A stretch of 17,981 bases of DNA from the NCBI GenBank assembly GCA_964640055.1, contig CAZXFH010000027.1:1-17981 (forward strand). Direction: 5' to 3'. The stretch is from an uncultured bacterium. GTDB lineage: Bacteria; Fidelibacterota; UBA2242; JAFGTP01. The stretch's first letter is position 1; every line of letters begins with the position of its first letter. Below the pieces are notes generated by a model. It searched no databases and was not told where the DNA came from. It worked only from the letters and a program-made list of their open reading frames with translations. The translations under genes and the position numbers were made by a program. Positions 1 through 17,918 of the stretch are shown one piece after another.

Positions 1-2234
1 TGTCTGATGTCACCCAGCTCACCTTTACGCCCGGTACCGATGAAAACGGATTTCCCTATGCAACCTTTCAGTTTCAGGTCAATGATGCTGTGGGTAACTG
101 GTCAGCGGATTATACCGTGACTTTCAATGTAAGAAGCGTAAACGATTCACCCGTCGTGGCTGATACCATTCCGGACCAGATCGCTTATGAAGATGCCGCT
201 TTTACCTTTACTTTTGGAGATACTGTTTTTAATGATGGGGATACCAGCGACAGTTTGCGGTACACGGCCACCTTATCCGATGCCAGTGCCCTACCCAACT
301 GGCTTTCTTTTGAGGGGGCTAATCCGCGCACGTTCAGCGGTACACCGGGAAATGATGATATTGATACTCTCACTGTGAAGGTCACGGCCACTGATGACTC
401 TGCCGCTAGTGCCTTTACAGCATTTGAGTTGGCCGTAATCAACACCAATGATCCCCCTATACTGACCGCAATTCCGGATACGATGTGTAATGAAGACAGT
501 CGTTTGACTATCTCAGTGACCGCCAGCGATGTGGATGCCATGAATAACCTATTATTAAGTGTATCCGCAGATACTTCCGCAGTTACAGCGGAATTTTCCG
601 CGAAAGGATCAGAATTGACTCAGGAGTTACTGATCACCCCGCAATCCAACTGGAATGGCACAGCCACAATTACCATCGTGGTTAATGACCAGGAATCCAA
701 AGCAACTGATACAACCGGTTTTACAATTACCATCTTAGCCAGAAATGATGCACCGGTAATCACCACGACAGAATTAACAGCGGCCATGGAAGATCAAACC
801 TACCATTTCAGTTTTACCGCAACCGATCCAGACCTGATCTATGGCGATACTTTGACCTATGCATTATCTGTCTCTCCCCAAGGCATGACAATTGATACCA
901 ACACAGGCGAAATCACCTGGTTACCAGACAATGGTGATGTCGGTGATACCAGCCTAACCGTCACAGTCAGCGATGATAGTAGCGCGACTGATGAAGAAAG
1001 CTTTACGCTAACAGTACATAACACCAATGATCCCCCACTGGTTGCTAATACCATTCCGAACCAAATCGCTACCGAAGACAGCTTGTTCTCTTTTACTTTT
1101 GGTGATACCGTTTTTACTGATATAGACGCTGACGACAGTTTAAGGTTCACAGCCAATCTGTCGGATGGCAGTGCCTTACCGGACTGGCTTGGGTTTGAGG
1201 AATCCACTCCACGTACCTTCAGCGGTACTCCTACAAATGAGGATATCGACACCATTAGCGTACAGGTTACAGCCATTGATGACTCTGCCGCTAACACCGC
1301 CACCGAGTTTGAGATCACCGTGATTAATATCAATGATCCACCGGTCATTACAAATCTGCCGGACACCGCTTTTGCCGAGGACAAACAATTATCTTTAGGA
1401 CTGAATTATTTCGCTTCCTTTGTGGAAGATCCTGATACGCCCGATAGCCTTTTGAGCTTTGCAATATCAGAGGCAAACTTAGTTCACTTCTCACTCGAAG
1501 AGGATTCTTTATTTTTATATGCAGCGCCAAATATATTTGGTGTTGATACTTTAATCGTTGCTGTTAATGACGGCGAATACCAGGACTCCACGCCAATGAT
1601 TGTGAATATCCTGCCGGTTAATGACGCACCCATTTTTACTGAAATAATGCCCGATACGATCCGCTTTGATTCCAATCAAGCGGATACCCTTGAATTAACC
1701 GGATTATTTACAGATATTGATACACCCGATTCATTACTGGTCTTATCCTATGTTTACAGCAGGTTTGTAAATTATGAGCGGATTGACTCGCTAAACATCA
1801 TCAAACTATCGACTGAAAATAATCAGGCCGGTACCGATACTCTGATACTATCCGTTTCAGATGGAGAATTAGAGACCATCGATTCCGTGTTAATTCAGGT
1901 GAAAAAAATAACTGGTATTGATTATGTGATGGGTCAAACACCCAAAGAGTTTAAATTATATCAAAATTATCCCAATCCCTTTAATCCTACTACCCATATA
2001 ATCTACAGCATACCCCAGGATTGTGAAGTAGAGCTGAGAATTTATGATATTCGTGGCAGAGAAATTGCTCTACTGGTTAAGGAAAAGCAGGGACCCAAAA
2101 ATTACAGAGTTATTTGGGACGGCTGCAATCAATCCGGTAGACAGGTTGCGAGTGGTATCTATTTTTACCAGATAATCGCTAAGTCAAAAAATAAAACCTT
2201 TATCAAAACTAAAAAGATGATGTTTTTGGAATAA
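1..2234 (+). CDS. 5'-truncated giant cell-surface adhesin with repeated cadherin-like (NDAP/NDPP-linked) and putative-Ig (PF05345-like) domains and a C-terminal T9SS (Por secretion) sorting domain
   Basis: The reading frame is open from base 3 with no stop, so the gene starts upstream of the window. The ORF track entry 90..2234 begins at an internal GTG. Segments ending in VNDSP/TNDPP/NDAP recur, and LSDxSALPxWLxF...RTFSGTP motifs are typical of bacterial cadherin-like and dystroglycan-type Ig domains. The last ~85 aa (KLYQNYPNPFNPTT...IYDIRGREIA...GIYFYQI) match the T9SS C-terminal domain signature. Confidence 0.8.
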   Translation, partial: SDVTQLTFTPGTDENGFPYATFQFQVNDAVGNWSADYTVTFNVRSVNDSPVVADTIPDQIAYEDAAFTFTFGDTVFNDGDTSDSLRYTATLSDASALPNWLSFEGANPRTFSGTPGNDDIDTLTVKVTATDDSAASAFTAFELAVINTNDPPILTAIPDTMCNEDSRLTISVTASDVDAMNNLLLSVSADTSAVTAEFSAKGSELTQELLITPQSNWNGTATITIVVNDQESKATDTTGFTITILARNDAPVITTTELTAAMEDQTYHFSFTATDPDLIYGDTLTYALSVSPQGMTIDTNTGEITWLPDNGDVGDTSLTVTVSDDSSATDEESFTLTVHNTNDPPLVANTIPNQIATEDSLFSFTFGDTVFTDIDADDSLRFTANLSDGSALPDWLGFEESTPRTFSGTPTNEDIDTISVQVTAIDDSAANTATEFEITVININDPPVITNLPDTAFAEDKQLSLGLNYFASFVEDPDTPDSLLSFAISEANLVHFSLEEDSLFLYAAPNIFGVDTLIVAVNDGEYQDSTPMIVNILPVNDAPIFTEIMPDTIRFDSNQADTLELTGLFTDIDTPDSLLVLSYVYSRFVNYERIDSLNIIKLSTENNQAGTDTLILSVSDGELETIDSVLIQVKKITGIDYVMGQTPKEFKLYQNYPNPFNPTTHIIYSIPQDCEVELRIYDIRGREIALLVKEKQGPKNYRVIWDGCNQSGRQVASGIYFYQIIAKSKNKTFIKTKKMMFLE
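166..468 (+). repeat. Intragenic direct repeat copy A (~300 bp domain duplication inside the adhesin gene)
   Basis: The nucleotide string ccattccggaccagatcgc...gatgactctgccgct...aatgatccccct is visibly similar to 1051-1345, at roughly 70-75% identity by eye. The protein segments IPDQIAYEDAAFTFTFGDTVFNDGDTSDSLRYTATLSD and IPNQIATEDSLFSFTFGDTVFTDIDADDSLRFTANLSD align. Confidence 0.7.
1051..1345 (+). repeat. Intragenic direct repeat copy B
   Basis: Partner of 166-468: ccattccgaaccaaatcgc...gatgactctgccgct...aatgatccaccg. Confidence 0.7.
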
Positions 2235-2639: not shown

Positions 2640-2664
2640 ATCTTTAAAACCGATGGAGCCTATT

Positions 2665-3519
2665 ATGATCACCTTAGCCATCCAAAAAGCGGGTCGCCTC
2701 AGTGAAAAAAGTATGCGTTTGCTCCGGGAATGCGACATCCACTGTGAAAATGGCGGCCGGACCAAATTAAAAATCAAGGCCGGCAATTTTCCGCTGGAAG
2801 TACTGCATATGCGGGATGATGATATCCCGGAATGTATCCGCGACGGCATTGCGGATATCGGTATCGTCGGCGAAAATGTCTATCTGGAAAAGCAGCCTCA
2901 GCTGCGTTGTATCGAACGGTTGGGTTTTGCCAAATGCCGGTTGTCGATTGGCGTACCCAGGGACATGTCCTATAAGTCTATTACTGATCTGGAGAACAAA
3001 AGTATTGCGACCTCCTATCCCAACATTTTACGGAATTATTTAGATGATAATCAGGTAAACGCCGAGATTCATGAAATCAGTGGATCAGTGGAACTGGCAC
3101 CCAGTATTGGTCTGGCAGATACGGTCTTTGATGTCGTGAGTAGTGGCAGTACCCTGATCAGCAATGGATTAAAAGAGGTAGAGACGGTGGTCCGTTCCGA
3201 AGCTGTTTTAATCAGCCCGGATGATCTGTCTGCTGATAAAGACGAACTCTTAAACCAGCTGCTATTTCGTATCCGGGCAGTCAACCGTGCCCGCCAGAGA
3301 AAATACATTCTACTGAATGCGCCCAATAATGCCATTGACCGGATCTGCGCTATTTTGCCAGGCATAAAGAGCCCGACGGTCATGCCCTTATCTGAATCAG
3401 GCTGGAGTTCAGTCCATTCCGTAATCGCTGAAGATCAATTCTGGGAAAACATTCAAAGTCTCAAAGAGGCCGGTGCCCAGGGCATTCTGGTCTTCCCCAT
3501 TGAAAAAATGATTCTCTAA
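2665..3519 (+). CDS. hisG: ATP phosphoribosyltransferase, long form (HisG)
   Basis: The product aligns along its full length with the long-form HisG family (MITLAIQKAGRLSEKS..., C-terminal regulatory domain present). A GGAG motif lies 6 nt upstream of the ATG at 2665. The ORF track starts at an alternative ATG at 2653. Confidence 0.9.
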   Translation: MITLAIQKAGRLSEKSMRLLRECDIHCENGGRTKLKIKAGNFPLEVLHMRDDDIPECIRDGIADIGIVGENVYLEKQPQLRCIERLGFAKCRLSIGVPRDMSYKSITDLENKSIATSYPNILRNYLDDNQVNAEIHEISGSVELAPSIGLADTVFDVVSSGSTLISNGLKEVETVVRSEAVLISPDDLSADKDELLNQLLFRIRAVNRARQRKYILLNAPNNAIDRICAILPGIKSPTVMPLSESGWSSVHSVIAEDQFWENIQSLKEAGAQGILVFPIEKMIL

Positions 3520-3533
3520 ACCGAGGTGAGCTC

Positions 3534-4832
3534 ATGGAAATCATTAAAAATCCTTCCAAAACCAGCTGGCCGGATTTACTGGCAAGACCCGGTCAGGAAA
3601 GTACCGCAAAAACCCAAAAGAACGTAGCCGATATTATCAAGCAGGTTAAACAACAGGGTGATCAGGCGCTTTTTGAATTAACCTACCGTTTTGACAAGGT
3701 CTCACTTAATCAATTACCGGTTACATCTGCTGAAATTGCACAGTCCATTCAAAATATCGATCCGGAACTGAAAGCGGCCCTCGAATTGGCAGAAAGGAAT
3801 ATCTGTTCCTTCCACGAAGCCCAGCTGCCTGCCGAAACCAAAGTTGTCGAAACTGCTCCGGGAGTACGATGCTGGTTAAAATATCTCCCCCTGGAGAAAG
3901 TCGGTCTCTATATTCCCGGCGGAACCGCGCCTTTATTCTCTTCGGTATTGATGCTGGGCATTCCGGCTCGCATCGCCGGCTGCCGGGAGCTTGTTCTGAT
4001 AACTCCACCGGATAAACAGGGACAGGTCCATCCGGCTATTCTATATTGTGCGCAGCGGTTGGGAATTAACACCATCTATAAAATCGGCGGTGCCCAGGCC
4101 ATTGCTGCTCTGGCCTACGGCACAGAGACCATTCCGAAAACAGCTAAAATCTTTGGCCCTGGCAATCAGTATGTCACGCTGGCCAAACAAATCGTAGCCA
4201 GTGAAGGGGTTCCGATTGATATGCCGGCCGGCCCCTCGGAAGTGATGGTCATCAGTGATGCCAGTGCTGACCCCAATTTTGTGGCGGCTGATCTGCTTTC
4301 GCAGGCCGAACACGGCAGTGACAGCCAGGCTATCCTGGTCAGCACCTCCCGGAAAATAATTGCTCAGGTTCAGCAGAATGTTAACGATCAACTGGAAACC
4401 CTCCCCCGTAAAGCCGTTGCCCGCCAGTCCTTGAAACATGCCCGCCTGATTCAGGTACCGGATATAAAAACCGCTCTGGAAATAGCCAATTATTATGCGC
4501 CCGAACATTTAATTATCATGACTGCCAATCCAGAGGCATTAAGCCCAAAAATTACAAATGCGGGCTCGGTATTTCTGGGAAAATATGCTCCGGAATCGGC
4601 AGGGGATTACTGTTCCGGCACCAACCATGTGCTGCCCACCCATGGATTTGCCCGCAATTACAGTGGGGTTACTGTAAGGGACTTCATGAAATCGATCACC
4701 TTTCAATCCATTACGCCTCAGGGATTGCAAATTCTGGGCCCGGCCATTGCAAAAATGGCGGCTGCGGAAGATTTGGATGCTCATAAGAATGCTGTTACTC
4801 TCCGGCTGAAACAGCTGCAAAAGGACCATTGA
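3534..4832 (+). CDS. hisD: Histidinol dehydrogenase (HisD)
   Basis: The protein is 432 aa and carries the HisD motifs GGAQAIAALAYGTE, IDMPAGPSEV, QAEHG, and GDYxSGTNHVLPT. A GAGGTGA Shine-Dalgarno site lies upstream. Confidence 0.92.
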   Translation: MEIIKNPSKTSWPDLLARPGQESTAKTQKNVADIIKQVKQQGDQALFELTYRFDKVSLNQLPVTSAEIAQSIQNIDPELKAALELAERNICSFHEAQLPAETKVVETAPGVRCWLKYLPLEKVGLYIPGGTAPLFSSVLMLGIPARIAGCRELVLITPPDKQGQVHPAILYCAQRLGINTIYKIGGAQAIAALAYGTETIPKTAKIFGPGNQYVTLAKQIVASEGVPIDMPAGPSEVMVISDASADPNFVAADLLSQAEHGSDSQAILVSTSRKIIAQVQQNVNDQLETLPRKAVARQSLKHARLIQVPDIKTALEIANYYAPEHLIIMTANPEALSPKITNAGSVFLGKYAPESAGDYCSGTNHVLPTHGFARNYSGVTVRDFMKSITFQSITPQGLQILGPAIAKMAAAEDLDAHKNAVTLRLKQLQKDH

Positions 4833-4869
4833 TACATTCAAAAAACCAGGGGAAAAGCAGGTATAGATT

Positions 4870-5928
4870 ATGTTTAACTTAAATGAATTAATCCGAAAAA
4901 ACATTGCTGAGCTCCGGCCCTATTCTTCGGCCCGGAATGAATATGCCGGAAGTCAAGGTATTTTTATGGACGCCAACGAAAACGCACTGGGCTCCCCATC
5001 TGATCAGCCCCTTAACCGTTATCCGGATCCGCACCAACGGCAACTGAAAAAGCGGATCAGTGAGCTGCTGAAAATACCCGCACCTCAAATTTTTCTGGGC
5101 AATGGAAGTGATGAGGTCATCGATTTGCTTATCCGTGCTTTTTGCGAACCCAACCAGGATAAACTAATAATTTTACCTCCGACCTATGGGATGTACACTG
5201 TGGCAGCCAATATCAATGCCGCAAAAATTATCAGAGTACCTTTAACCCATGATTTTCAGATCGATACCCCTGCCGTCCTGGAAAAATTGGCTCTGAAGCC
5301 CAAGCTACTATTTCTCTGCTCGCCCAATAACCCGACCGGTAATTGCTTTCAAGAGAAAGATATTAAAAAATTACTGGCTAATTTTGAGGGGTTGGTGGTC
5401 ATTGATGAAGCCTATGTGGATTTTTGCGCGCGTCAAAATTATCTGTCCTGGCTGAAACAATATAAGAACCTGGTCATCATTCGGACTTTTTCCAAGGCCT
5501 GGGGCATGGCCAGTATCCGGCTGGGCATGGCCTTTGCATCGGCTGATATAATCGATATTCTGACCCAGCTGAAATATCCCTATAATGTCAATGCAATTAC
5601 TCAGGAGGCGGCCCTGCGAGCATTGGATAACATTGATCAACAGAAAAAGATGATTAAACAGCTCCTCAGCGAACGCGACAAACTCAGCCAAGCCCTTTCC
5701 CGCCTAGAAATCGTGGAAAAAGTCTTCCCTTCAGATGCAAATTTCTTACTGGTCAGGTTTCACGATGCCCGCAAGGTCTATCAAGCCATGCTGCAAAGGA
5801 AAATTATTCTACGGGATCGTTCCCAGTTAATACATTGTGATAATTGTTTGCGGATCACCGTGGGGACGCCCCGGGAAAACCAACTATTACTGGAGGCCTT
5901 GTTATCCTACACAAAACAAGGGAAATGA
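4870..5928 (+). CDS. hisC: Histidinol-phosphate aminotransferase (HisC)
   Basis: The protein is 352 aa with a class II aminotransferase fold and a PLP-lysine motif ([15 protein letters not shown]). Its position in the his operon supports the call. Confidence 0.9.
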
Positions 5929-5948
5929 AGCAACAGGAGCAAACCATT

Positions 5949-7043
5949 ATGCGAAAAATTCTTTTTATCGACCGGGATGGTACCATTATCAAAGAGCCGC
6001 CTGACAAACAGATCGACTCCTTAGAAAAACTGGAATTCTATCCGGGTGTGATCTGCGGCATGAAAGCCATTGCCGAAACTCTGGATTATCAATTGGTAAT
6101 GGTCACCAATCAGGATGGATTGGGCACGGAGTTATTCCCGGAAGACACATTTTGGCCGGTGCATAACAAAATGCTAACCATTCTCAAAAATGAGGGGGTT
6201 TCCTTTGAGGATATCCTGATTGATATAAGTCTGCCCCAAGACCAGGCCCCCACCCGCAAACCCCGGACCGGACTATTAAAAGAGTATCTAAAAGACCCGG
6301 AAATCGACTGGCAACAGAGTTATGTGATCGGAGACCGGGAGAGCGATGTGCAGCTGGCCCTAAACCTGGGCTGCCAGGCAATCTATTTACATGAAAAAAA
6401 ACACCCCGAAGCAGTCCTGACCACCACTGATTGGATGGCAATCCACCACTTTTTACGCTCAACCGCCCGCCAGGCGACAGTTCAGCGCCGGACAGCGGAA
6501 ACCGATATACGGGCCACTGTAAAACTGGACGGAAAGGATGCTTCCGAAATAGAGACCGGTATTGGTTTTTTAAACCATATGTTGAACTTGTTTACCACTC
6601 ATTCCGGGATCGATCTCTCCCTGCAGGCCAGCGGCGATCTGGAGGTCGATGAACATCATACGGTAGAGGATACTGCACTGGTTTTGGGCGAGGCGATCAA
6701 TAAAGCTTTGGACAACAAGGCCGGCATCGAACGCTACGGATTTCTACTCCCCATGGATGAGTCACTGACTCAGGTTGCTCTGGATTTCAGCGGTCGCCCG
6801 GAACTGGTCTGGCAGGTCGAATTCCAGCGGGAATATGTGGGAAAAATGCCAACCGAACTGTTTCAACATTTTTTCAAATCTCTAACGAATGCAGCTGGGC
6901 TGACACTTCATATTAAAGCCAGCGGTGAAAATGAGCACCACAAGATCGAGTCTATCTTTAAGGCCGTGGCCCGAGCGTTTAAAATGGCTATCCATCGTCA
7001 GCCGGACAACACCCAAATCCCCAGCACCAAAGGACGTTTATGA
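5949..7043 (+). CDS. hisB: Bifunctional histidinol-phosphatase / imidazoleglycerol-phosphate dehydratase (HisB)
   Basis: The N-terminal HAD-type phosphatase begins [15 protein letters not shown]. The C-terminal dehydratase carries the DEHH/EHH motifs ([20 protein letters not shown]). An AGGAG lies 9 nt upstream of the ATG at 5949. An alternative in-frame ATG at 5925 overlaps the hisC stop. Confidence 0.9.
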
Positions 7044-7621
7044 CAGTTGCCATCATTCGTTACAATGCCGGTAATATTCATTCTGTCCGTTTGGCCTTAC
7101 AGCGACTTGATATCGAACCGGTAGTCACTAATGACCTGCAGCAGCTCCGCAGGGCCGAAAAAATCATTTTCCCGGGTGTGGGGGAGGCCAGCTCGGCCAT
7201 GCATTATCTCAAAGCAAAGGGGTTGACACAAGAGATACCCCGCTTCAGACAGCCTTTTCTGGGGATCTGCCTGGGAATGCAGCTGATGTGTCGGCATTCC
7301 GCGGAAAATAACGCTCCCTGTCTGAACATTTTTCCATCGGTAGTGAAGCAATTTCCCCGACGATTAAAAGTACCTCATATGGGCTGGAACACAATTACAG
7401 ATTTGCAGGGTCCGCTTTTTGAATCCGTGGACCCCGGCTCCTATCTTTACTTTGTACACAGCTATTATGTAGAGTTGAATCCCTATACCGTGGCGCAGAG
7501 TGACTATATGTTTCCCTTTAGTGCGGCGGTGCAAAAAGACAATTTTTGGGCCACCCAATTTCATCCGGAAAAATCCGGTGAAATCGGAGAACAAATTCTG
7601 AAAAACTTTTTATCTTTATGA
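7040..7621 (+). CDS. hisH: Imidazole glycerol phosphate synthase, glutamine amidotransferase subunit (HisH)
   Basis: A class I glutamine amidotransferase with catalytic Cys in GICLGMQ and the His region HSYY. Its start overlaps the hisB stop as ATGA. Confidence 0.9.
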
Positions 7622-7634
7622 GCTTGAGAATTTT

Positions 7635-8357
7635 ATGATCACCATCATTCCGGCCGCTGATATTATCGCAGGTAAATGTGTACGTTTAACCCAAGGGGTC
7701 TTTGATTCTAAAAAGGTATATAAGGGGTCCCCTGTTGAAATTGTGCAACGGTACGAAGACTATGGCATCCAGCGGCTGCATGTTGTTGATCTGGATGGTG
7801 CCAAAGCCCGGCGGATTATCAATTGGCCGACGCTTAAAGAGATCGCCACTCACACAAATTTGACCATTGATTTTGGTGGTGGTATTCAATCCCATGAGGA
7901 TCTGCAGCTGGCATTGGACAGTGGGGCCGATATGGTCACAGCCGGAAGTATAGCGATAAAGGATCCGGAAAAAGTATTTAATTGGATTAAAACCTACGGA
8001 CCGGAAAAAATTATTCTGGGTGCAGATGTACAAAACCATAAGCTCGCAATTCACGGCTGGCAGGAAAAAACCGATCTGGAGCTGTTCACTTTCATTGAAA
8101 AATTCAGGGCTAAGGGCATTCAACAGCTTATCTGCACTGATATTTCCCGGGATGGTATGCTAGCGGGGCCGGCTTTTAGCCTGTATCAGGCACTCAAAAA
8201 TCAGTTTCCACAATTAAAGATTATTGCCAGCGGCGGCATCAGCTGTCTGGCAGACATTGAGCAATTAGACAGAATAGGTGTTACGGCTGTTATCATCGGG
8301 AAGGCCCTTTACGAAGGTCGGATCCGGTTAAAGGAGCTGGAGCAATTTATATGTTAA
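7635..8357 (+). CDS. hisA: ProFAR isomerase (HisA)
   Basis: The N-terminus [18 protein letters not shown] is typical of the HisA TIM barrel, and the protein is 240 aa. Confidence 0.9.
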
Positions 8358-9106
8358 GTAAACGCATTATTCCCTGTCTGGACATTAAAGACGGCCAGAC
8401 CGTTAAAGGCGTCAATTTTGTCAATTTGCGCCAGGCCGGTGATCCGGTGGAACTGGGATCGGCTTATGCCCGGCAGGGGGCGGATGAACTGGTCTTTCTG
8501 GATATTACTGCCACGGTGGAGAAACGGGCCACTCTGGTAAGCCTGGTTAAAAGCATCGCTGCTGAACTCAATATCCCTTTTACCGTGGGCGGCGGGATCC
8601 GGAATGAACAGGATGTGGCCGCACTGTTAAATGCGGGTGCTGATAAGATAACGGTGAACAGCGCCGCGGTAAAGGAACCCGGTCTGATCTCGCGCTTGGA
8701 AAAACAGTTCGGCAGCCAGTGTATCGTATTAGCTATTGATGCCAAAAAAACAGCGGAAGACTGGACTGTTTATATCCACGGTGGCCGTACACCCACCAAT
8801 AAAAAAGCAATTAGCTGGGCGCAACAAGCCACTGACCTGGGAGCCGGTGAGATCCTGCTCACTTCCATGGATCATGATGGTACCCAACAGGGTTTTGCCG
8901 TGGAGCTGACGCGGTGCTTTGCCGCACAGCTCTCTATCCCGGTAATCGCTTCCGGAGGGGCCGGGACCTGTGCCCATTTCAAAGAGATATTTACCCATGG
9001 AAAAGCCGACGCCGCCCTGGCGGCCAGTATTTTTCATTTCGGTCAGATTCTAATACCCGAACTAAAACAGTACTTAAAATCCCATAATATCGAGGTACGT
9101 TTATGA
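8351..9106 (+). CDS. hisF: Imidazole glycerol phosphate synthase, cyclase subunit (HisF)
   Basis: The N-terminus [20 protein letters not shown] matches HisF. Its start overlaps the hisA end by 7 nt. Confidence 0.92.
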
Positions 9107-9696
9107 AAATAGATTTTGATAAAGGCAATGGGCTCGTTCCTGCTATCGTACAGGACGCCAATACCCACAAAGTGCTTATGCTGGGATATATGAACCAAGA
9201 TGCCTATAAGAAGACCCGTCAGACCGGCCGGGTTACTTTTTACAGCCGCTCCCGGCAAGAATTATGGACCAAGGGTGAGACTTCCGGGAATTATCTGTAT
9301 CTCCAGGAGATCCGGGTCGATTGCGATAATGACACCCTCCTGATCAAAGCCCATCCCAGCGGCTCGGTCTGTCATACCGGAAAAGATACCTGCTTTGAAG
9401 AAACCAATATTAGTGTGCAGGATTTTATTCACAGATTGGAAAATATTATCGCTGACCGTCAGCAAAATCCGCAAGCCGGCTCCTATACCTGCCAACTCTT
9501 CGATGTTGGTATCAAAAAAATCAGCCAGAAAGTAGGCGAAGAAGCGGTGGAAGTGATCATTGATGCCTTGGATGATAACATCAACGCTTTAAAAGAGGAA
9601 ACTGCGGATTTGCTCTATCATTTGTTAGTCTTGCTAAGAGCTCGTGATATTGACTGGGATGAGATCATGGCCACCCTGGCTGAGCGGCATAAGTAG
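9103..9696 (+). CDS. hisI: Bifunctional phosphoribosyl-AMP cyclohydrolase / phosphoribosyl-ATP pyrophosphatase (HisIE)
   Basis: The N-terminal HisI part contains GLVPAIVQD...SGSVCHTG. The C-terminal HisE helical pyrophosphatase part contains [27 protein letters not shown]. Its start overlaps the hisF stop as ATGA. Confidence 0.9.
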
Positions 9697-12039: not shown

Positions 12040-12246
12040 GTATTATCCGGTTTCCTAATAAGAAAAAACTCCCATAACCCAATTTACAGAGAGTTTACCT
12101 GATAAACCAAATTGAATTTTCAGGGTAATTGCAGAGTTTTATTTAGCTTGAACCGAATAGACGCATTGAAAAGACTATTTATAATTGGAAATTAAAATAT
12201 TATTCCATAATCTTTCAGTGTTAATGTTAATTAAACGGAAAATGAA

Positions 12247-14952
12247 ATGAAATTAATCAAAATTGTTAGTTTTTACTTACTTTTCGGTAGTGTACTCCTG
12301 ATCGCCTCCCAGGCCGGGAAAGTCTATCTGGTCTTGGGCTCGGATACCGCGATCTGGGATGGCATGAGCACCGGCCGTTTTCACTGTACCTATGATCTGA
12401 GTTTGTATACGGATCCCACCCGTAATGCCAATCAGATCATGGATTCCAGCTACCGGAATCAGTTCGTTGATTCCTACGGGACCCCGATGAAAATGACCTG
12501 GTGGATGATGTGTGGTAACATTTTCCGCTATGCCACCAACACCAATATTCCGATTCCGAATATCATGACCATGTACTTGATGAAAAAATACTACCTCCCG
12601 GAAATAAATGCGATCGGTGACGAGCTCTCGCTGCATTACCATACTTTTAAATGGAGTGATTATGATGGGGATGGCCTGTGGTACTGGAATCAAGCGCTGA
12701 CCTTTTCCGAATGTCGGGATGATTGGAATTTTACCCTGTGTCAACTTCTGCTGGAAGAGCAGGTTTTCCCGGTCTCCTTCCGCAGTGGCTGGCACTACAT
12801 GGACAATGAATGGCAGCAAAATTTGAATGACCTCCTTCCCTACAGCATGCACAATGCCTATCCGTCCAAAAAAACTGAAGATACCGAACCCCTGGACAAT
12901 GTAATTGACTGGTCGCAGGCACCATCAGAATTTGTGCCCTATCATCCCGCTCCGGAAAACTACCAACTGCCGGGCGACAGTCCGGGCTGGAATTTGCGTT
13001 CGGCCCATTTCTGGGGCGTTCGTGCGCGTGACCTGATGGATACGGTTTTTGCCGCAGCTGCCAATGGCACGGATCAAATAGCCTGCTTCTGGGGGCATCT
13101 CCCGGAAACAGATTTTAACACCAATGTTGAAATTATGGATAGCCTGGCCCACAAAATGGCCAATAAATATCCGGAAGTGAAATTTCGCTACTGTACTGCT
13201 ATCGAAGGCATGCAGCGCTGGCAGCAGACGAGCGACAGCCTGGCTCCTGAAGTCACTCTGGAACAAACCGGCAATGAAACGGAAATTGGCTTCCGGATTA
13301 CCTCCAATGAAGCCACCTTTCAGCCGGTTCCTTTTCTGGCAGTCAAGGATATCTATGAAAATTATTTTATCATGGATTGCTATGCGACGGGCACAAACAC
13401 CTGGGAAACAACCGAAACAATCAACCGGGAGCTGCTTGCCAAAGTAGGGGCGGCCCTCTGTGATAGTATGGGTAACCAAAGTATGGAATTTATCAAATAT
13501 CTGCCCGATGACCAGTTCATTGACAATACTGACGATGGTTATACCGAGCTGGCGGGTAACTGGACGACCACAACAGACCGGACCTGGGGACTGGACGCCA
13601 GAATAAGCACCCTCAGCGAAAACGATTCAAATGTGGTTCAGTGGACTCCGGCGATCCAGAAAAGCGGTTTATACAATCTCTTTATTCAGGTGCCTACGGT
13701 AAACAATGCTGCCGAACACACTGTTTTCAAAATCATCGCTGGTGGCATACCGGTGGATACCATCACTTTTGATGCGGCCCTGCCACCGGATGAATGGATC
13801 TATATCAGCACCACAGAGCTATCCGCAGGGGCCAGCAACCATTTACAGATGAAAATAAAAAACACCTCGCAAACAGAGGTTCAGATCGCGGCGGATGTGG
13901 CCAAATTTTCGGCTCTGGTGCGGGAATATGATTTGGTCTTTGACACCGATTTGATCTACTTCGGGGAAGTCAGTGTCGAAGACACCGTTACCCAAACCTT
14001 AAAGTTACAGAATCAGGGTTATCAAGCGCTCACTATTCAAGAGGTCACCTCTCTGAAAGGGCTATGTCAGGTTACGGCTGAATTTCCGTTGCAGGTCCCG
14101 CAAATGGGCTCGATCCAACTGCCAGTTTGGTTCTACAGTACGGAATTAGGGTCAGTGTCGGATACCCTGCTGATCACCAGTAACGATCCGCGTAATCCAC
14201 AAAGCAAAATCCCGGTGAGCGCGGATGTACGACCTTTCTTTACCATCATCGATAATGAGGACTCTGTTTATTATCAGGAATATGGTAATTGGCACACCAG
14301 TGTAGCCGAGGCCTATGGTCCTTCCAGCCGCTATGCCTGGCTCAACTCCAGTCCCTTAGCCAGTGCGGAATTCCAATCCCGGGTAAAGAAAAATGGCATC
14401 TATGAAATTTTTGAAATTGTTCCCCGGACAGTAAACGCCACTGATCATGCCCTCTATAAACTGATTGTTGGGGAAACAGTAAAGGATTCAATTATTATCA
14501 ATCAAAACACCGATAGCGGGGGTTGGATATCCCTGGGTCAATATTATCTGCCAGCAGATGAGGCTGTTAAGATAAAAGTGATTGATACTGGTCAGAGCAC
14601 CCTGGGGCATGTACTGCGGGCCGATGCGATCAAGATCAGCCTGATCGAAGAAGTAACTCAGATCGCAGACAGTCAGGACCAGATACCTTTGACATATTCT
14701 CTGGGTCAGAATTATCCCAATCCCTTCAACGCAACCACCACGATTCCCTATACCATTCCCAAACAGGGCCGCGTTCAGGTGACGATCTACAATACGCTGG
14801 GACAAACAGTGGTAAAACTGGTGGATGAGATCCAAACAGCGGGGCAATACCAAGTAAAATTGCAGGTGGGTCATTATGGTTCCGGCATCTATCTCTACCA
14901 GCTGAAAACCGATCAATACTGTGCCACCAAAAAATTGATCCTGGTGAAGTGA
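12247..14952 (+). CDS. Secreted multidomain T9SS cargo protein: signal peptide, unassigned N-terminal domain, golvesin-C-like domain, choice-of-anchor-D/HYDIN-type Ig-like domain, second golvesin-C-like domain, T9SS C-terminal sorting domain
   Basis: An N-terminal signal peptide is present (MKLIKIVSFYLLFGSVLLIASQAG). Two paralogous ~130-aa domains (about 13517-13910 and 14245-14640) have the pattern IDNxD...YxExGxW...NATxH..YK...INQNTDSGGWISLGQYYL...VLRADAIKI, which resembles the golvesin C-terminal domain. An Ig-like domain lies between them (EYDLVFDTDLIYFGEVSVEDTVTQ...ITSNDPRNP). The last ~84 aa (LGQNYPNPFNATTTIPYTIP...GIYLYQL) form a T9SS C-terminal domain. Confidence 0.8.
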   Translation: MKLIKIVSFYLLFGSVLLIASQAGKVYLVLGSDTAIWDGMSTGRFHCTYDLSLYTDPTRNANQIMDSSYRNQFVDSYGTPMKMTWWMMCGNIFRYATNTNIPIPNIMTMYLMKKYYLPEINAIGDELSLHYHTFKWSDYDGDGLWYWNQALTFSECRDDWNFTLCQLLLEEQVFPVSFRSGWHYMDNEWQQNLNDLLPYSMHNAYPSKKTEDTEPLDNVIDWSQAPSEFVPYHPAPENYQLPGDSPGWNLRSAHFWGVRARDLMDTVFAAAANGTDQIACFWGHLPETDFNTNVEIMDSLAHKMANKYPEVKFRYCTAIEGMQRWQQTSDSLAPEVTLEQTGNETEIGFRITSNEATFQPVPFLAVKDIYENYFIMDCYATGTNTWETTETINRELLAKVGAALCDSMGNQSMEFIKYLPDDQFIDNTDDGYTELAGNWTTTTDRTWGLDARISTLSENDSNVVQWTPAIQKSGLYNLFIQVPTVNNAAEHTVFKIIAGGIPVDTITFDAALPPDEWIYISTTELSAGASNHLQMKIKNTSQTEVQIAADVAKFSALVREYDLVFDTDLIYFGEVSVEDTVTQTLKLQNQGYQALTIQEVTSLKGLCQVTAEFPLQVPQMGSIQLPVWFYSTELGSVSDTLLITSNDPRNPQSKIPVSADVRPFFTIIDNEDSVYYQEYGNWHTSVAEAYGPSSRYAWLNSSPLASAEFQSRVKKNGIYEIFEIVPRTVNATDHALYKLIVGETVKDSIIINQNTDSGGWISLGQYYLPADEAVKIKVIDTGQSTLGHVLRADAIKISLIEEVTQIADSQDQIPLTYSLGQNYPNPFNATTTIPYTIPKQGRVQVTIYNTLGQTVVKLVDEIQTAGQYQVKLQVGHYGSGIYLYQLKTDQYCATKKLILVK

Positions 14953-15219
14953 ACAGACCAAACCAAATTGGCCAGCCCTTTCGAAGGCTGCCGGTGGTTG
15001 GCAATCGGGAAACTGTTAAAACCGTTTCTGTAATTTTGAGTTTTTGTTATTTTCGCGTTAACTCTCGCACCCACAGTTAAAACTGTGGGTTAATCCGAAT
15101 AATACCTGGACAGCGATGATTTTTGCTAAGGGTCACACCGCAGAGCAGTGTGGCCAGACTAGACTTCGTCCCGATAGCTGATCTTATACTCGAGCTGAGG
15201 ACTAGGACAACCCCCTTTA

Positions 15220-15249
15220 TCCCCCTTTGATAAGGGGGACGTTTTTTTT
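15220..15249 (+). terminator. Intrinsic terminator-like hairpin tcccccTT-TGAT-AAggggga followed by T8
   Basis: The stem is a perfect 8 bp (15220-15227 with 15232-15239) with a 4-nt loop, and a T8 tract follows at 15242-15249. It lies about 270 nt downstream of the T9SS cargo gene stop. Confidence 0.6.
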
Positions 15250-15454
15250 GACTGAGTGTCATAGAATCAACATCGCTCATAATCATTGTGAATTTTTACA
15301 CCTCTCCTGATTCCCACAGTGGGGTTTTCTCGAGGTCATTTTTCAAATAATTTTTCAGTTTACACCTCATTTGGTTTTATTCTAAATTGCTGATTTACAA
15401 GTCATGCTCAACTGCTCAACTCAAAAAACCAAACCGACCCTATCGCGTTCAGGT

Positions 15455-15472
15455 CCCCCCTATGAAGGGGGG
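15455..15472. repeat. GC-clamp hairpin ccccccTATGAAgggggg, one of several poly-C/poly-G hairpins in this intergenic region
   Basis: A 6-bp all-GC stem with a 6-nt loop. The related structures C5-A-G7 at 15627-15639 and cccacagTTAAAActgtggg at 15070-15089 lie in the same 860-bp spacer. Confidence 0.4.
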
Positions 15473-15535
15473 AAGTGAAGGGGGGTGTCAGACAATCAGT
15501 AGTTCTTATGACCCCAGTTCTTACAACCCCCTGTC

Positions 15536-15564
15536 TCCCCCTTTGATAAGGGGGACCTTTTTTT
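15536..15564 (+). terminator. Second copy of the same terminator-like element (tcccccTT-TGAT-AAggggga + T7)
   Basis: The hairpin is identical to the one at 15220-15249. The repeated context acaaccccct...tccccctttgataagggggac...ttttttt is shared with 15208-15249. Confidence 0.55.
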
Positions 15565-15815
15565 GAGCGGGTGTTGTTTTATCGGTATCTCTCATTATAT
15601 TCATCGGTTATGATACCTCCCTATATCCCCCAGGGGGGGACCTAATTTAGAAAATTGCTGAATAATTAACATTAGGGTTAGATATGGAATATCACAATAG
15701 GAAATACGAAATGATTGTAATTCATAATTCACAAATAAATGCTTGGTAGATCACTCATATTTCCATAATATTCAGTTGATTATGAATTGGTTAATACTTT
15801 TATAAAGAGTTGATC

Positions 15816-16508
15816 ATGCGTCAAATTTTCCCCCTGGGTTGTCTACCCTTTATGTTCTTCCTTTTAATTCTATTAATTCCCCTTTTTCTGGCAGACGTGA
15901 TGTTGACCGCTTTGAGCCGCTTGGGCTTAGCGCCGCTGAGCGCCCTGATTACCGGTATTGGAATTTTCCTAGGTGGCATCGTCAATATTCCTGTCAAGCA
16001 AGTGAGACGCGAGCAGCCGATTGATAACAGACCGTCGCGACTATACGGTCTGGACCGCTTTTTCCCCCGGCAAACCAGTTCGCGCAATTACACGGTGATT
16101 GCCGTTAATCTGGGAGGGTGCGTTATTCCGGCTTGTTTGGCTGTCTATGAATTATTACGGCTGCTCGCTCAAGGAGCTGCCCCTCTGATGGCAGCCCTGT
16201 TTGCGATTGCCATCAATGTGGGAATCTGCTACTGGTTAGCCCGGCCGATTCCGAATACCGGCATTGCTTTGCCAGCCTTGGTTCCGGGCATCACAGCAGC
16301 GCTATTGGCCTTGCTTTTTATGCCTGATTTTGCCCCACCGGTCGCTTTTGCCGCCGGTGTCCTAGGGCCTTTGATCGGCGCTGACCTGCTGCACCTGAAA
16401 GACATCCGCCGGATTGCCACCCGGGTCGCCAGTATTGGCGGGGCCGGAACCTTTGATGGCATTGTGATCTCCGGTTTACTGGCCACGCTGCTGGTCCCCT
16501 CTCTGTAA
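15816..16508 (+). CDS. Polytopic integral membrane protein, probably DUF1614 family
   Basis: The protein has about six hydrophobic helices. Its conserved-looking C-terminal motif ASIGGAGTFDGIVISG recalls DUF1614 proteins. The ATG at 15816 is the first ATG of the ORF, and the track's TTG at 15810 is less likely. No search was run to confirm the family. Confidence 0.55.
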   Translation: MRQIFPLGCLPFMFFLLILLIPLFLADVMLTALSRLGLAPLSALITGIGIFLGGIVNIPVKQVRREQPIDNRPSRLYGLDRFFPRQTSSRNYTVIAVNLGGCVIPACLAVYELLRLLAQGAAPLMAALFAIAINVGICYWLARPIPNTGIALPALVPGITAALLALLFMPDFAPPVAFAAGVLGPLIGADLLHLKDIRRIATRVASIGGAGTFDGIVISGLLATLLVPSL

Positions 16509-16738: not shown

Positions 16739-17101
16739 ATGTCATACTATCATGAACCGGTTGAAGAGCTCAGTGCGCAGACCCGTAACTGTACCCGGGC
16801 ACTCAACAGCTTAAAAGAAGAGATCGAAGCAGCGGACTGGTACAACCAGCGGGTGGATGCCAGTCAGGATGAAAATCTGAAAAATATTCTCGCCCATAAC
16901 CGGGACGAAGAGATCGAACATGCCTGTATGTTGATCGAGTGGTTGCGTCGCAATATGGATGGTTGGGACGAGGAATTGAAAACCTATCTGTTTAAAGAAG
17001 GCGATATAACCCAACTGGAAGAAGCAGGCGCAGAAAATGAAGCGGATCCCGATACTACTTCCGGGGAATCAACAAGTTTAAATATCGGCAAAAACAAATA
17101 A
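16739..17101 (+). CDS. Encapsulated ferritin-like protein (EncFtn) cargo with C-terminal encapsulin targeting peptide
   Basis: The blocks EEIEAADWYNQRVDAS...ILAHNRDEEIEHACMLIEWLRRN match the EncFtn di-iron site (Glu, Glu, His). The acidic C-terminal tail ends in TSLNIGKNK, which matches the family-1 cargo-loading peptide consensus (SLxIGxLK-like). A strong Shine-Dalgarno site (AAGAGGAGG) lies 5 nt upstream. Confidence 0.8.
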   Translation: MSYYHEPVEELSAQTRNCTRALNSLKEEIEAADWYNQRVDASQDENLKNILAHNRDEEIEHACMLIEWLRRNMDGWDEELKTYLFKEGDITQLEEAGAENEADPDTTSGESTSLNIGKNK

Positions 17102-17117
17102 TTAGGAGAAAGATACC

Positions 17118-17918
17118 ATGGATTTATTGAAAAAGTCTCTGGCGCCGATCACCGCCGATGCCTGGGATGAAATAAATGAGGAAGCCACCCGGGTCCTGAA
17201 AAACAAACTGTCGGCCCGCAAATTTGTGGATGTGGCCGGACCCAAGGGATGGGATTATGCCGCAGTTCCGCTGGGTAAACTGCAAATTTCCGATCAACAA
17301 AAAAAGGATGCGGTCCGCCATGGCATTCACCAGGTGCAGCCCTTAGTTGAAACGCGCCGCAGTTTTCAATTAGACCTGTGGGAACTGGACAATATCAATC
17401 GCGGCAATCCCGCAATAGAGCTGGGTGACCTGACCCAAGCAGCCGCCGAGTCAGCGGCTTTTGAAGAAAAGGCGATCTATTACGGACTTTCAAAAGCCAA
17501 TATCAAGGGCTTAAAAGAAAGCAGTGCTCACAAATCCCTGGCTTCGCCGCAGAATAAAGAAGATTTTTTGAACAGTGTCGCAGATGGTGTCAACCAATTC
17601 AAGTTAGCCTCTATTGAAGGCCCCTATACCCTGATTCTGCATCCGGAAAAATGGAAAGAGATGATCAGCTGTTCACAAGGTTACCCGGTCACCCGCCACC
17701 TGGATGAAATATTGGGGGGTAACATCCTTGTTTCTGATAATGTGAACCAGAATGATATGTTTCTGGTCACCGAACGGGGTGGTGATTTTGTGTTAACGCT
17801 GGGCGCTGATTTTTCGCTGGGTTATGAACATCATGATCACCAGAAAGTACAGCTGTTTCTGGCCGAATCCTTTACCTTTCAGGTCCTGGATCCGGAAGCG
17901 GTGATCATTTTTACTTAA
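17118..17918 (+). CDS. Family 1 encapsulin nanocompartment shell protein (HK97-fold, linocin M18 / Thermotoga maritima type)
   Basis: The 266-aa product aligns along its full length with the T. maritima encapsulin as recalled from memory (MDLLKKSLAPITADAWDEIN...RKFVDVAGPKGWDYAAVPLG...FQLDLWELDN...IEGPYTLIL...ERGGDFVLTLGADFSLGYE). An AGGAGA Shine-Dalgarno site lies 8 nt upstream, and the gene sits 17 nt downstream of its cargo gene. Confidence 0.88.
   Translation: MDLLKKSLAPITADAWDEINEEATRVLKNKLSARKFVDVAGPKGWDYAAVPLGKLQISDQQKKDAVRHGIHQVQPLVETRRSFQLDLWELDNINRGNPAIELGDLTQAAAESAAFEEKAIYYGLSKANIKGLKESSAHKSLASPQNKEDFLNSVADGVNQFKLASIEGPYTLILHPEKWKEMISCSQGYPVTRHLDEILGGNILVSDNVNQNDMFLVTERGGDFVLTLGADFSLGYEHHDHQKVQLFLAESFTFQVLDPEAVIIFT

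Follow-up and report, generated by a model that had tools for sequence, protein, structure and literature searches.

In enzymes of the CE4 (NodB) family, an Asp-His-His triad binds Zn or Co, an Asp tuned by an Arg serves as the catalytic base, and a His late in the chain serves as the acid. The D-H-H signature has been described alongside PdaA of Legionella, a polysaccharide deacetylase that is secreted, associates with the surface and edits the lipopolysaccharide (LPS) of the very cell that makes it (PMC12239567). PdaA, which leaves the cell by type II secretion (T2SS), and Agd3 (CE18), which takes the fungal secretory pathway, are secreted deacetylases acting on exopolysaccharide or LPS, and both have canonical D-H-H/NodB motifs. 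Here we analyse a protein that belongs to neither of their families, carries a sorting tail for the type IX secretion system (T9SS), and in which these motifs are not recognisable by sequence. It is encoded at 12247..14952 (+) of a 17,981-nt stretch of DNA from an uncultured bacterium of the Fidelibacterota (contig CAZXFH010000027.1; the whole stretch is referred to as the window). Among the closest known systems is the CE4/NodB fold, including the larger barrels of the PuuE/HP0310 type (3qbu, 1z7a, 3cl6, 3rxz). The predicted fold, the conservation pattern and the context support an enzymatic reading of the N-terminal barrel, and our favoured reading, held at about even odds, is that the protein is a metal-dependent, de-acylase-like carbohydrate hydrolase, exported by the T9SS and targeted by two modules resembling carbohydrate-binding modules (CBMs).

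Domain architecture and export

The open reading frame (ORF) has an ATG start and encodes 901 aa followed by a stop codon, and thus constitutes a complete coding sequence. The opposite strand is full of stops, and the GC content of the gene (0.43-0.49) is the same as that of the remaining window, along which it is uniform. The original prediction, made by eye from the letters, had described a 901-aa T9SS cargo with exactly this ORF, and its domain order was recovered by profile searches: a signal peptide, an unassigned N-terminal region, a Golvesin_C domain, an Ig domain of the HYDIN/VesB type, a second Golvesin_C domain and a T9SS type-A tail, with every C-terminal module above its Pfam or NCBIfam threshold. 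This overall layout, in which a catalytic module, CBMs and an Ig spacer are enclosed by a signal peptide and a sorting tail, is conventional, and ordinary for secretomes of the Fibrobacteres-Chlorobi-Bacteroidetes (FCB) group.

The Sec-type signal peptide (12247..12315 (+), aa 1-23) was judged by inspection and hydropathy only; it has a K-rich n-region (MKLIK) and a hydrophobic core (mean Kyte-Doolittle value 2.4 over aa 6-20), and ends in ASQA before a Gly, without a lipobox Cys. AlphaFold2 renders it as an isolated helix with a lower pLDDT (predicted local distance difference test) score. At the other end, the T9SS type-A C-terminal sorting domain (14713..14943 (+), aa 823-899 of 901) scores 48.4 bits against TIGR04183 (cut-off 23) and 43.8 bits against PF18962 (cut-off 27), and is preceded by a low-confidence linker at aa 805-811. 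Because a signal peptide and an intact type-A tail occur together, surface display or secretion is supported at the level of domains, and the earlier claim of cell-surface display follows from the same two elements.

The window holds a second T9SS-tailed, adhesin-like ORF at 90-2234 (+). Given this ORF, and given that relatives of the 901-aa protein are found nearly exclusively in FCB-group genomes, the host genome plausibly carries the T9SS machinery (PorK/L/M/N, SprA, PorU/V) beyond the 18 kb in view. The product of the second ORF has three He_PIG Ig domains, Big_9/cadherin-like domains and a weak Por_Secre_tail/CHU_C match; its frame is open up to the start of the window, so that the protein may be longer.

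Fold of the N-terminal barrel

Between the signal peptide and the first Golvesin_C domain, the unassigned region anticipated by the original prediction is real, but its size is about 400 aa (aa 24-420) rather than the ~300 aa proposed: a barrel of about 300 aa (12316..13236 (+), aa 24-330) is joined to a small beta-sandwich of about 85 aa (13237..13506 (+), aa 331-420), which invariably comes after the barrel and belongs to the conserved family unit. An AlphaFold2 model based on a 47-sequence alignment (mean pLDDT 93.6, predicted template modelling score 0.90) consists of an alternating strand/helix barrel at aa 24-330 followed by an all-beta sandwich at aa 336-417, and displays the distorted (beta/alpha)7-8 barrel that characterises CE4/NodB enzymes.

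Fold comparison places the barrel, as an unclassified catalytic-type module, in the 7-stranded beta/alpha-barrel superfamily of glycoside hydrolases and deacetylases, and the best annotated matches are deacetylases of the CE4/PuuE type, all matches being at 6-14% identity. The highest score belongs to 3lm3 (the uncharacterised BDI_3119; 15.4), followed by the HP0310 peptidoglycan deacetylase (14.4), PuuE-type barrels (13.5-13.6), the glycoside hydrolase family 57 (GH57) enzyme AmyC (13.1), insect chitin deacetylases (12.4-12.7), Agd3 (12.3), other GH57s (11.7-12.2), YdjC and ArnD (about 11) and GH38 (9.2-10.5). Foldseek concurs weakly (PuuE/1z7a at E 3e-4, TM 0.4-0.55). The top match, BDI_3119 from Parabacteroides distasonis, is labelled a 'putative glycoside hydrolase/deacetylase' and shares 10% identity with the window protein; since it is itself uncharacterised, no function can be transferred from it, and a literature search returned no relevant paper describing 3LM3/BDI_3119.

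Searched as a single sequence, as a 47-sequence family profile and as a 35-sequence superfamily profile, aa 1-420 gave no match in Pfam-A, NCBIfam or PDB sequences, in keeping with the original statement that the N-terminal module could not be placed in a known enzyme family; no solved relative of the module is thus detectable by sequence. When Pfam was run on 20 distant members of the superfamily, the matches were to accessory domains only. An hhalign comparison of the superfamily profile with E. coli ArnD and with the CE4 domain of PgaB gave probabilities below 1%, and ArnD proved to have so little in common with other CE4 structures in sequence that no useful CE4 profile could be built from it. 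The novelty lies in the catalytic-type module, whose large family has no name in Pfam (2025 copy) or NCBIfam (2026) and has a motif set of its own within a known fold superfamily.

Conserved residues and a candidate mechanism

Conservation was assessed over 212 superfamily members spanning the barrel, 157 from the window's clade and 55 distant ones (21-34% identity). Nine polar residues are near-invariant (D33, R70, D75, D125, H130, H132, R179, Y239 and H284); the window protein carries all nine, and the signature is intact in about 98% of its clade. D33, H130 and H132 are at least 98% conserved, R179 and H284 are invariant or at least 98% conserved, and four aromatic residues (W85, W147, W182 and W222) are conserved too. 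The motifs singled out in the original prediction, HYHTFKW (aa 130-136), SFRSGWHYMD (aa 177-186) and DWSQAP (aa 221-226), are present and form the most conserved blocks of the family. Its description of the module as Trp/Tyr/His-rich holds for Trp (3.8%) and Tyr (5.8%), but not for His, which at 2.3% is conserved rather than abundant.

According to the predicted secondary structure, D33 is the last residue but one of strand 1, H130 and H132 are at the end of strand 3, R179 is at that of strand 4 and H284 comes after strand 7; in the model, D33, H130/H132, R179 and H284 thus lie on the C-terminal, catalytic face of the beta/alpha barrel. The mapping of conserved His and Asp residues among homologues, which had been proposed as a check, accordingly yielded a near-invariant set located mostly at the C-termini of barrel strands. 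R70 and D75 belong to a segment inserted between strands 1 and 2. The sole member lacking one of the histidines (P0231) lacks all three, and this joint loss suggests that the three form one functional unit. Along the chain, the order D...HxH...R...DW...H parallels NodB motifs 1-5, a parallel of linear order and not of superposition; R179 and H284 stand in the order and at the strands where candidates for the motif 3 Arg and the motif 5 catalytic His would be expected.

These features would fit the following mechanism. The Sec signal peptide would bring the protein to the periplasm, and the type-A C-terminal domain would direct it to the T9SS for release or anchoring at the cell surface, where the two CBM35-type Golvesin_C modules, with the Ig-like spacer between them, might keep the enzyme on its glycan. 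The catalytic unit would be the barrel together with the small beta-sandwich, acting as a deacetylase or esterase of a type similar to the CE4/NodB enzymes. In this unit, D33 at the end of strand 1 and H130 and H132 at the end of strand 3 would hold a divalent metal that activates water, H284 at the end of strand 7 would be the general acid, and the general base would be a conserved Asp, either D75 or D125, which R70 or R179 would tune. The many conserved Trp and Tyr residues could form a platform for the sugar, from which the barrel would hydrolyse an acyl group, most simply acetyl. Candidate substrates are an environmental polysaccharide that is acetylated or contains acetamido sugars, or a surface glycan of the cell itself; the precedent of Legionella, which edits its own LPS, means that the substrate may be self rather than food. 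Read in this light, the original suggestion of a novel hydrolase or esterase appears fair, judging from the modelled catalytic-type fold, the conserved residues and the context. Of the two findings that had been named as contrary to that prediction, a non-catalytic fold for the N-terminal region and a golvesin assignment unsupported by profiles, neither turned up.

Several observations weigh against a CE4-like de-acylase. PF01522, the CE4/NodB model, gave no match at E ≤ 10 in the window protein, in 47 close relatives or in 20 distant ones, and no link by sequence or profile was found to CE4 or to any other characterised family. The canonical CE4 base, the Asp that precedes the metal Asp (TFDD), is absent, the position being occupied by Ser in the window's clade (S32) and by Val or Ile in distant clades, and the His pair is spaced HxH instead of HxxxH. 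When 83 related loci were examined for a partner gene in an operon, nothing but other T9SS-tailed proteins occurred as a neighbour in more than 11 of them, so that the gene context of the secreted clade offers no pointer to a substrate. Finally, the clades differ in their carboxylates. Distant clades keep extra ones, E35 (49 of 55 members), E185 (43 of 55) and D200 (51 of 55), where the window's clade has A/S/G35, M185 and S/C200 (A35, M185 and S200 in the window protein itself); what the window's clade keeps instead is H183 (145 of 157), D186 (148 of 157) and H202 (124 of 157). As far as the aligned residues tell, the clades have evidently come to differ in the wiring of their active site. 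The transfer of function between them is therefore uncertain, and any chemistry deduced from the cytoplasmic sister clade described below may not apply to the window's clade.

The carboxylate swap also bears on whether the module is an enzyme at all. It could be a non-catalytic binder of glycans or other ligands, a pseudoenzyme, with the whole protein acting as a T9SS-displayed adhesin or lectin. The residues absent from the window's clade (E35, E185 and D200) are conserved in all other clades, pseudoenzymes are known in the same fold (BA3943, 7bkf, is among the fold matches), and most neighbouring genes in related genomes encode further T9SS cargo, possibly adhesive. Proteins of the CBM6/35/36_like_2 group that have no enzyme domain act as lectins (PMC9166713). 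Yet the nine-residue core is intact in the window protein and nearly all of its clade, the clade has gained the conserved H183, D186 and H202 rather than decaying, and identities of 45-66% maintained over several phyla suggest strong constraint on a pocket, all of which makes a pseudoenzyme quite improbable in our judgement.

If the barrel is catalytic, it might alternatively be a glycoside hydrolase like GH57 or the metal-assisted GH38, in which D33, D75 and D125 would provide nucleophile and acid-base, the His residues would hold a metal orienting the substrate, and the Golvesin_C modules would target a polysaccharide for depolymerisation. Judging by strand order and by what is generally known of these families, the site of the GH57/GH38 nucleophile at strand 4 is here occupied by the invariant R179, as in NodB motif 3: in place of the Glu/Asp nucleophile of the alpha-glucan-active GH57 enzymes (AmyC, 2b5d; TLGT, 1k1w) there is an Arg, as there is in comparison with the GH38 alpha-mannosidases. 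The helical domain of GH57 and the downstream domains of GH38 are likewise lacking, and neither GH57 nor GH38 (Glyco_hydro_38N) gave a profile match. The protein thereby lacks the combinations that define these families, namely a profile match with five conserved regions bearing a Glu nucleophile and an Asp acid/base for GH57, and one with a His/Asp/Asp/His Zn site and an Asp nucleophile for GH38. The three invariant histidines, lost jointly in P0231, are also better suited to a catalytic metal site. We therefore consider a glycosidase unlikely.

A cytoplasmic sister clade in nonulosonic-acid clusters

The superfamily includes a clade of cytoplasmic proteins of about 400 aa, without a signal peptide and with 'DTEG' after strand 1, which match no Pfam model and for which no source gives a name. 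Its genes lie at L089 7001-8206, at L091 4818-6026 and, one per locus, in L092-L161, a metagenome scan for the clade having returned 70 loci. Two members less than 50% identical to each other share the same gene row, in which a dehydratase, a DegT aminotransferase and a methyltransferase are followed by the focal gene and a GFO/IDH/MocA oxidoreductase.

In most of 62 loci, the gene lies inside clusters for the biosynthesis of acetamido sugars of the legionaminic-acid type. The neighbours include NeuB synthase (23 loci), CMP-sugar cytidylyltransferase (22+10), DegT aminotransferase and GFO/IDH/MocA oxidoreductase (20 each), SAM methyltransferases (18+7), 4,6-dehydratase (16), PglD-type N-acetyltransferase (11), CBS-UDP-sugar dehydrogenase and Radical SAM proteins (9 each), and Epimerase_2 (NeuC/LegG-type), PtmE-like CBS-NTP-transferase and Sulfotransferase (5 each). 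The pathway at these loci is nonulosonic acid biosynthesis of the legionaminic-acid type. A replacement of the NDP-sugar hydrolase/2-epimerase step by the cytoplasmic clade was rejected as a general explanation, since Epimerase_2 (NeuC/LegG-type) co-occurs with it in several loci. Given that the focal gene occurs together with this hydrolysing epimerase, usually with a methyl- or sulfotransferase beside it, the best interpretation of the clade is a tailoring enzyme that works on an acetamido sugar, and it may be one of the legionaminic-acid pathway that has not been described before.

The context of the sister clade indicates that the superfamily works on sugars, and it fits a de-acylase, while proving neither for the window's clade. 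A glycosidase has no obvious role in a nucleotide-sugar operon that already encodes a hydrolysing epimerase, a further point against that alternative. Taking fold, residues and sister clade together, one could speculate more broadly that barrel and sandwich constitute a new family of carbohydrate-active enzymes, likeliest a carbohydrate esterase or de-N-acetylase, with an HxH metal pair, a base contributed by the strand 1-2 insertion, and accessory sets (His-Asp-His or Glu-Glu-Asp) that differ from clade to clade; the sister clade would then be an undescribed legionaminic-acid-type tailoring enzyme, and the T9SS Golvesin_C clade would act on glycans containing acetamido sugars or nonulosonic acids, possibly on the cell's own surface. 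We advance this composite picture tentatively and hold it to be possible rather than probable.

The C-terminal modules

Both Golvesin_C modules, which had been called twin golvesin-C-like domains, exceed the PF25275 cut-off of 31.6 bits when scanned separately, with 55.9 bits for copy 1 (13519..13908 (+), aa 425-554) and 74.4 bits for copy 2 (14245..14637 (+), aa 667-797); their combined E is 7.7e-34 and their mutual identity 27%. Between them lies a HYDIN/VesB/PapD-like Ig domain, probably a spacer (13933..14223 (+), aa 563-659), which scores 35.3 bits against PF22544 HYDIN_VesB_CFA65-like_Ig (cut-off 25.5). Of the original label 'choice-of-anchor-D/HYDIN', the second half stands; choice-of-anchor D (NF012200) reached 35.9 bits against a cut-off of 45, and the domain is therefore better named HYDIN/VesB-type.

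A structure model of aa 421-901 (pLDDT 92.1) is all-beta, with four modules and the linker at aa 805-811 disordered (pLDDT <50). The modelled Golvesin_C fold, a CBM6/35-type beta-jelly roll as found in CBMs, matches xanthan-lyase and CBM35-type modules, and the family profile touches a CBM35 weakly by sequence as well (2w3j, E 0.07). InterPro places golvesin in the group CBM6-CBM35-CBM36_like_2, whose characterised proteins are golvesin and a Bacillus xanthan lyase, and Bacteroides Cbeg4 and Cbeg5 are secreted lectins through the same domain as golvesin (PMC9166713). Compared with the xanthan lyase (6f2p) and with Cbeg4/Cbeg5, the Golvesin_C domains of the window protein are paired around an Ig spacer and joined to a different catalytic module. 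A carbohydrate-binding role of the pair, originally put as carbohydrate or ligand binding, is well founded at the level of the modelled fold.

Breadth and gene context of the secreted clade

A word-indexed search found 149 relatives at 43-66% identity, all 'hypothetical' and mostly with Golvesin_C coming after the conserved unit. A full hidden Markov model scan of 1.84 billion cluster representatives returned 486 at E ≤ 1e-3, of which 161 also pass E ≤ 1e-30; lengths of 885-925 aa are frequent among them, and each of the 486 stands for a cluster at 50% identity. Among species-representative genomes, relatives occur at 281 loci, and the hosts are essentially all metagenome-assembled genomes of Calditrichota, Marinimicrobia, KSB1, Ignavibacteriota, Zixibacteria and Bacteroidota. 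The family member at these loci is typically 895-960 aa long, and the 901-aa architecture is therefore the norm of the clade. The T9SS is restricted to the FCB group. Verrucomicrobial relatives, of about 640-650 aa, have a single Golvesin_C and no recorded sorting tail, which fits this restriction.

Golvesin_C is present in 41 of 47 close members. Distant secreted members carry dockerin, F5/8 type C, beta-helix, fn3 and Ig modules, which is the usual accessory set of carbohydrate-active enzymes. The source names of ten representative members are all 'hypothetical' or 'T9SS type A sorting domain-containing protein', and a tblastn search against annotated plasmids gave no match. In public assemblies, a look-up by exact sequence returned no record of the 901-aa protein.

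PuuE-type enzymes are cytoplasmic and metal-independent. In a further alternative, the window protein would hydrolyse an amide or ester outside polysaccharides, as a PuuE-type cyclic amidohydrolase, an ArnD-like deformylase of peptidoglycan stems or lipid-linked sugars, or another small-molecule esterase, with the CBM-like modules serving as an envelope tether. The protein is secreted and bears two CBM-type modules, however, the dockerin and F5/8 type C fusions among its relatives point to polymeric glycans, and the D/H/H set is conserved here where PuuE-type enzymes do without a metal; we judge this alternative to be very improbable.

About half of the 83 related loci contain further T9SS cargo genes, with domains such as DUF4082+fn3, beta-propeller or Amidase_3, and none of the 83 is syntenic with the window. 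An operon-coupled function, as in a polysaccharide utilisation locus, was rejected for the secreted clade, there being no recurrent neighbour over these loci. In several genomes of Ignavibacteria and Bacteroidota (L078 4730-7807, L065 4981-7599, and similarly in L060 and L071), the gene immediately upstream of the family member is one for a large T9SS cargo with DUF4082, fn3/Rha78A-like Ig and purple-acid-phosphatase-N-like domains. This DUF4082 cargo is a possible lineage-specific partner and is not conserved family-wide.

Surroundings in the window

Within the window the gene is on its own. A divergent CDP-alcohol phosphatidyltransferase gene and one for an epimerase lie upstream, and beyond these is a complete, tightly packed histidine biosynthesis (his) operon at 2653-9696 (+), comprising hisG, hisD, hisC, a fused hisB (HAD phosphatase plus IGPD), hisH, hisA, hisF and a fused hisIE. 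A sigma-70-like promoter upstream of the gene (12158-12185) was rejected as no better than chance (9 sites against 7.5 expected).

Downstream, the 857-nt stretch at 14953-15809 contains no ORF of ≥80 aa, and Rfam and tRNA scans of the whole window gave no match. This stretch holds two 93%-identical 42-nt copies of an element ending in a GC-rich hairpin and a T-run, at 15207-15248 and 15523-15564 (316 nt apart), as well as a partial third copy at 15635-15651 and an inverted partner at 15451-15473. From its sequence, the element looks like a small repeated terminator or a repetitive extragenic palindromic (REP)-like element. The first copy downstream of the gene (15207..15248 (+)) was found as a consensus match and may serve as its terminator. 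There follow a DUF1614 membrane protein (15810-16508) and, at 16739-17918 (+), an EncFtn-like ferritin gene directly followed by the gene for a Linocin_M18 encapsulin shell, a classic iron-storage nanocompartment pair.

Implications

Should the N-terminal module be catalytic, it would define a sizeable family of secreted enzymes active on carbohydrates, whose members annotation pipelines at present label no further than 'hypothetical' or 'T9SS sorting domain-containing protein'. Its hosts (Calditrichota, Marinimicrobia, KSB1, Ignavibacteriota, Bacteroidota and Verrucomicrobiota) are lineages of importance to the turnover of polysaccharides in sediments and oceans, and with one member characterised, hundreds of genes would receive an annotation of the CAZy type. 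From the sister clade in legionaminic-acid clusters, nonulosonic-acid biosynthesis would gain a missing tailoring step.

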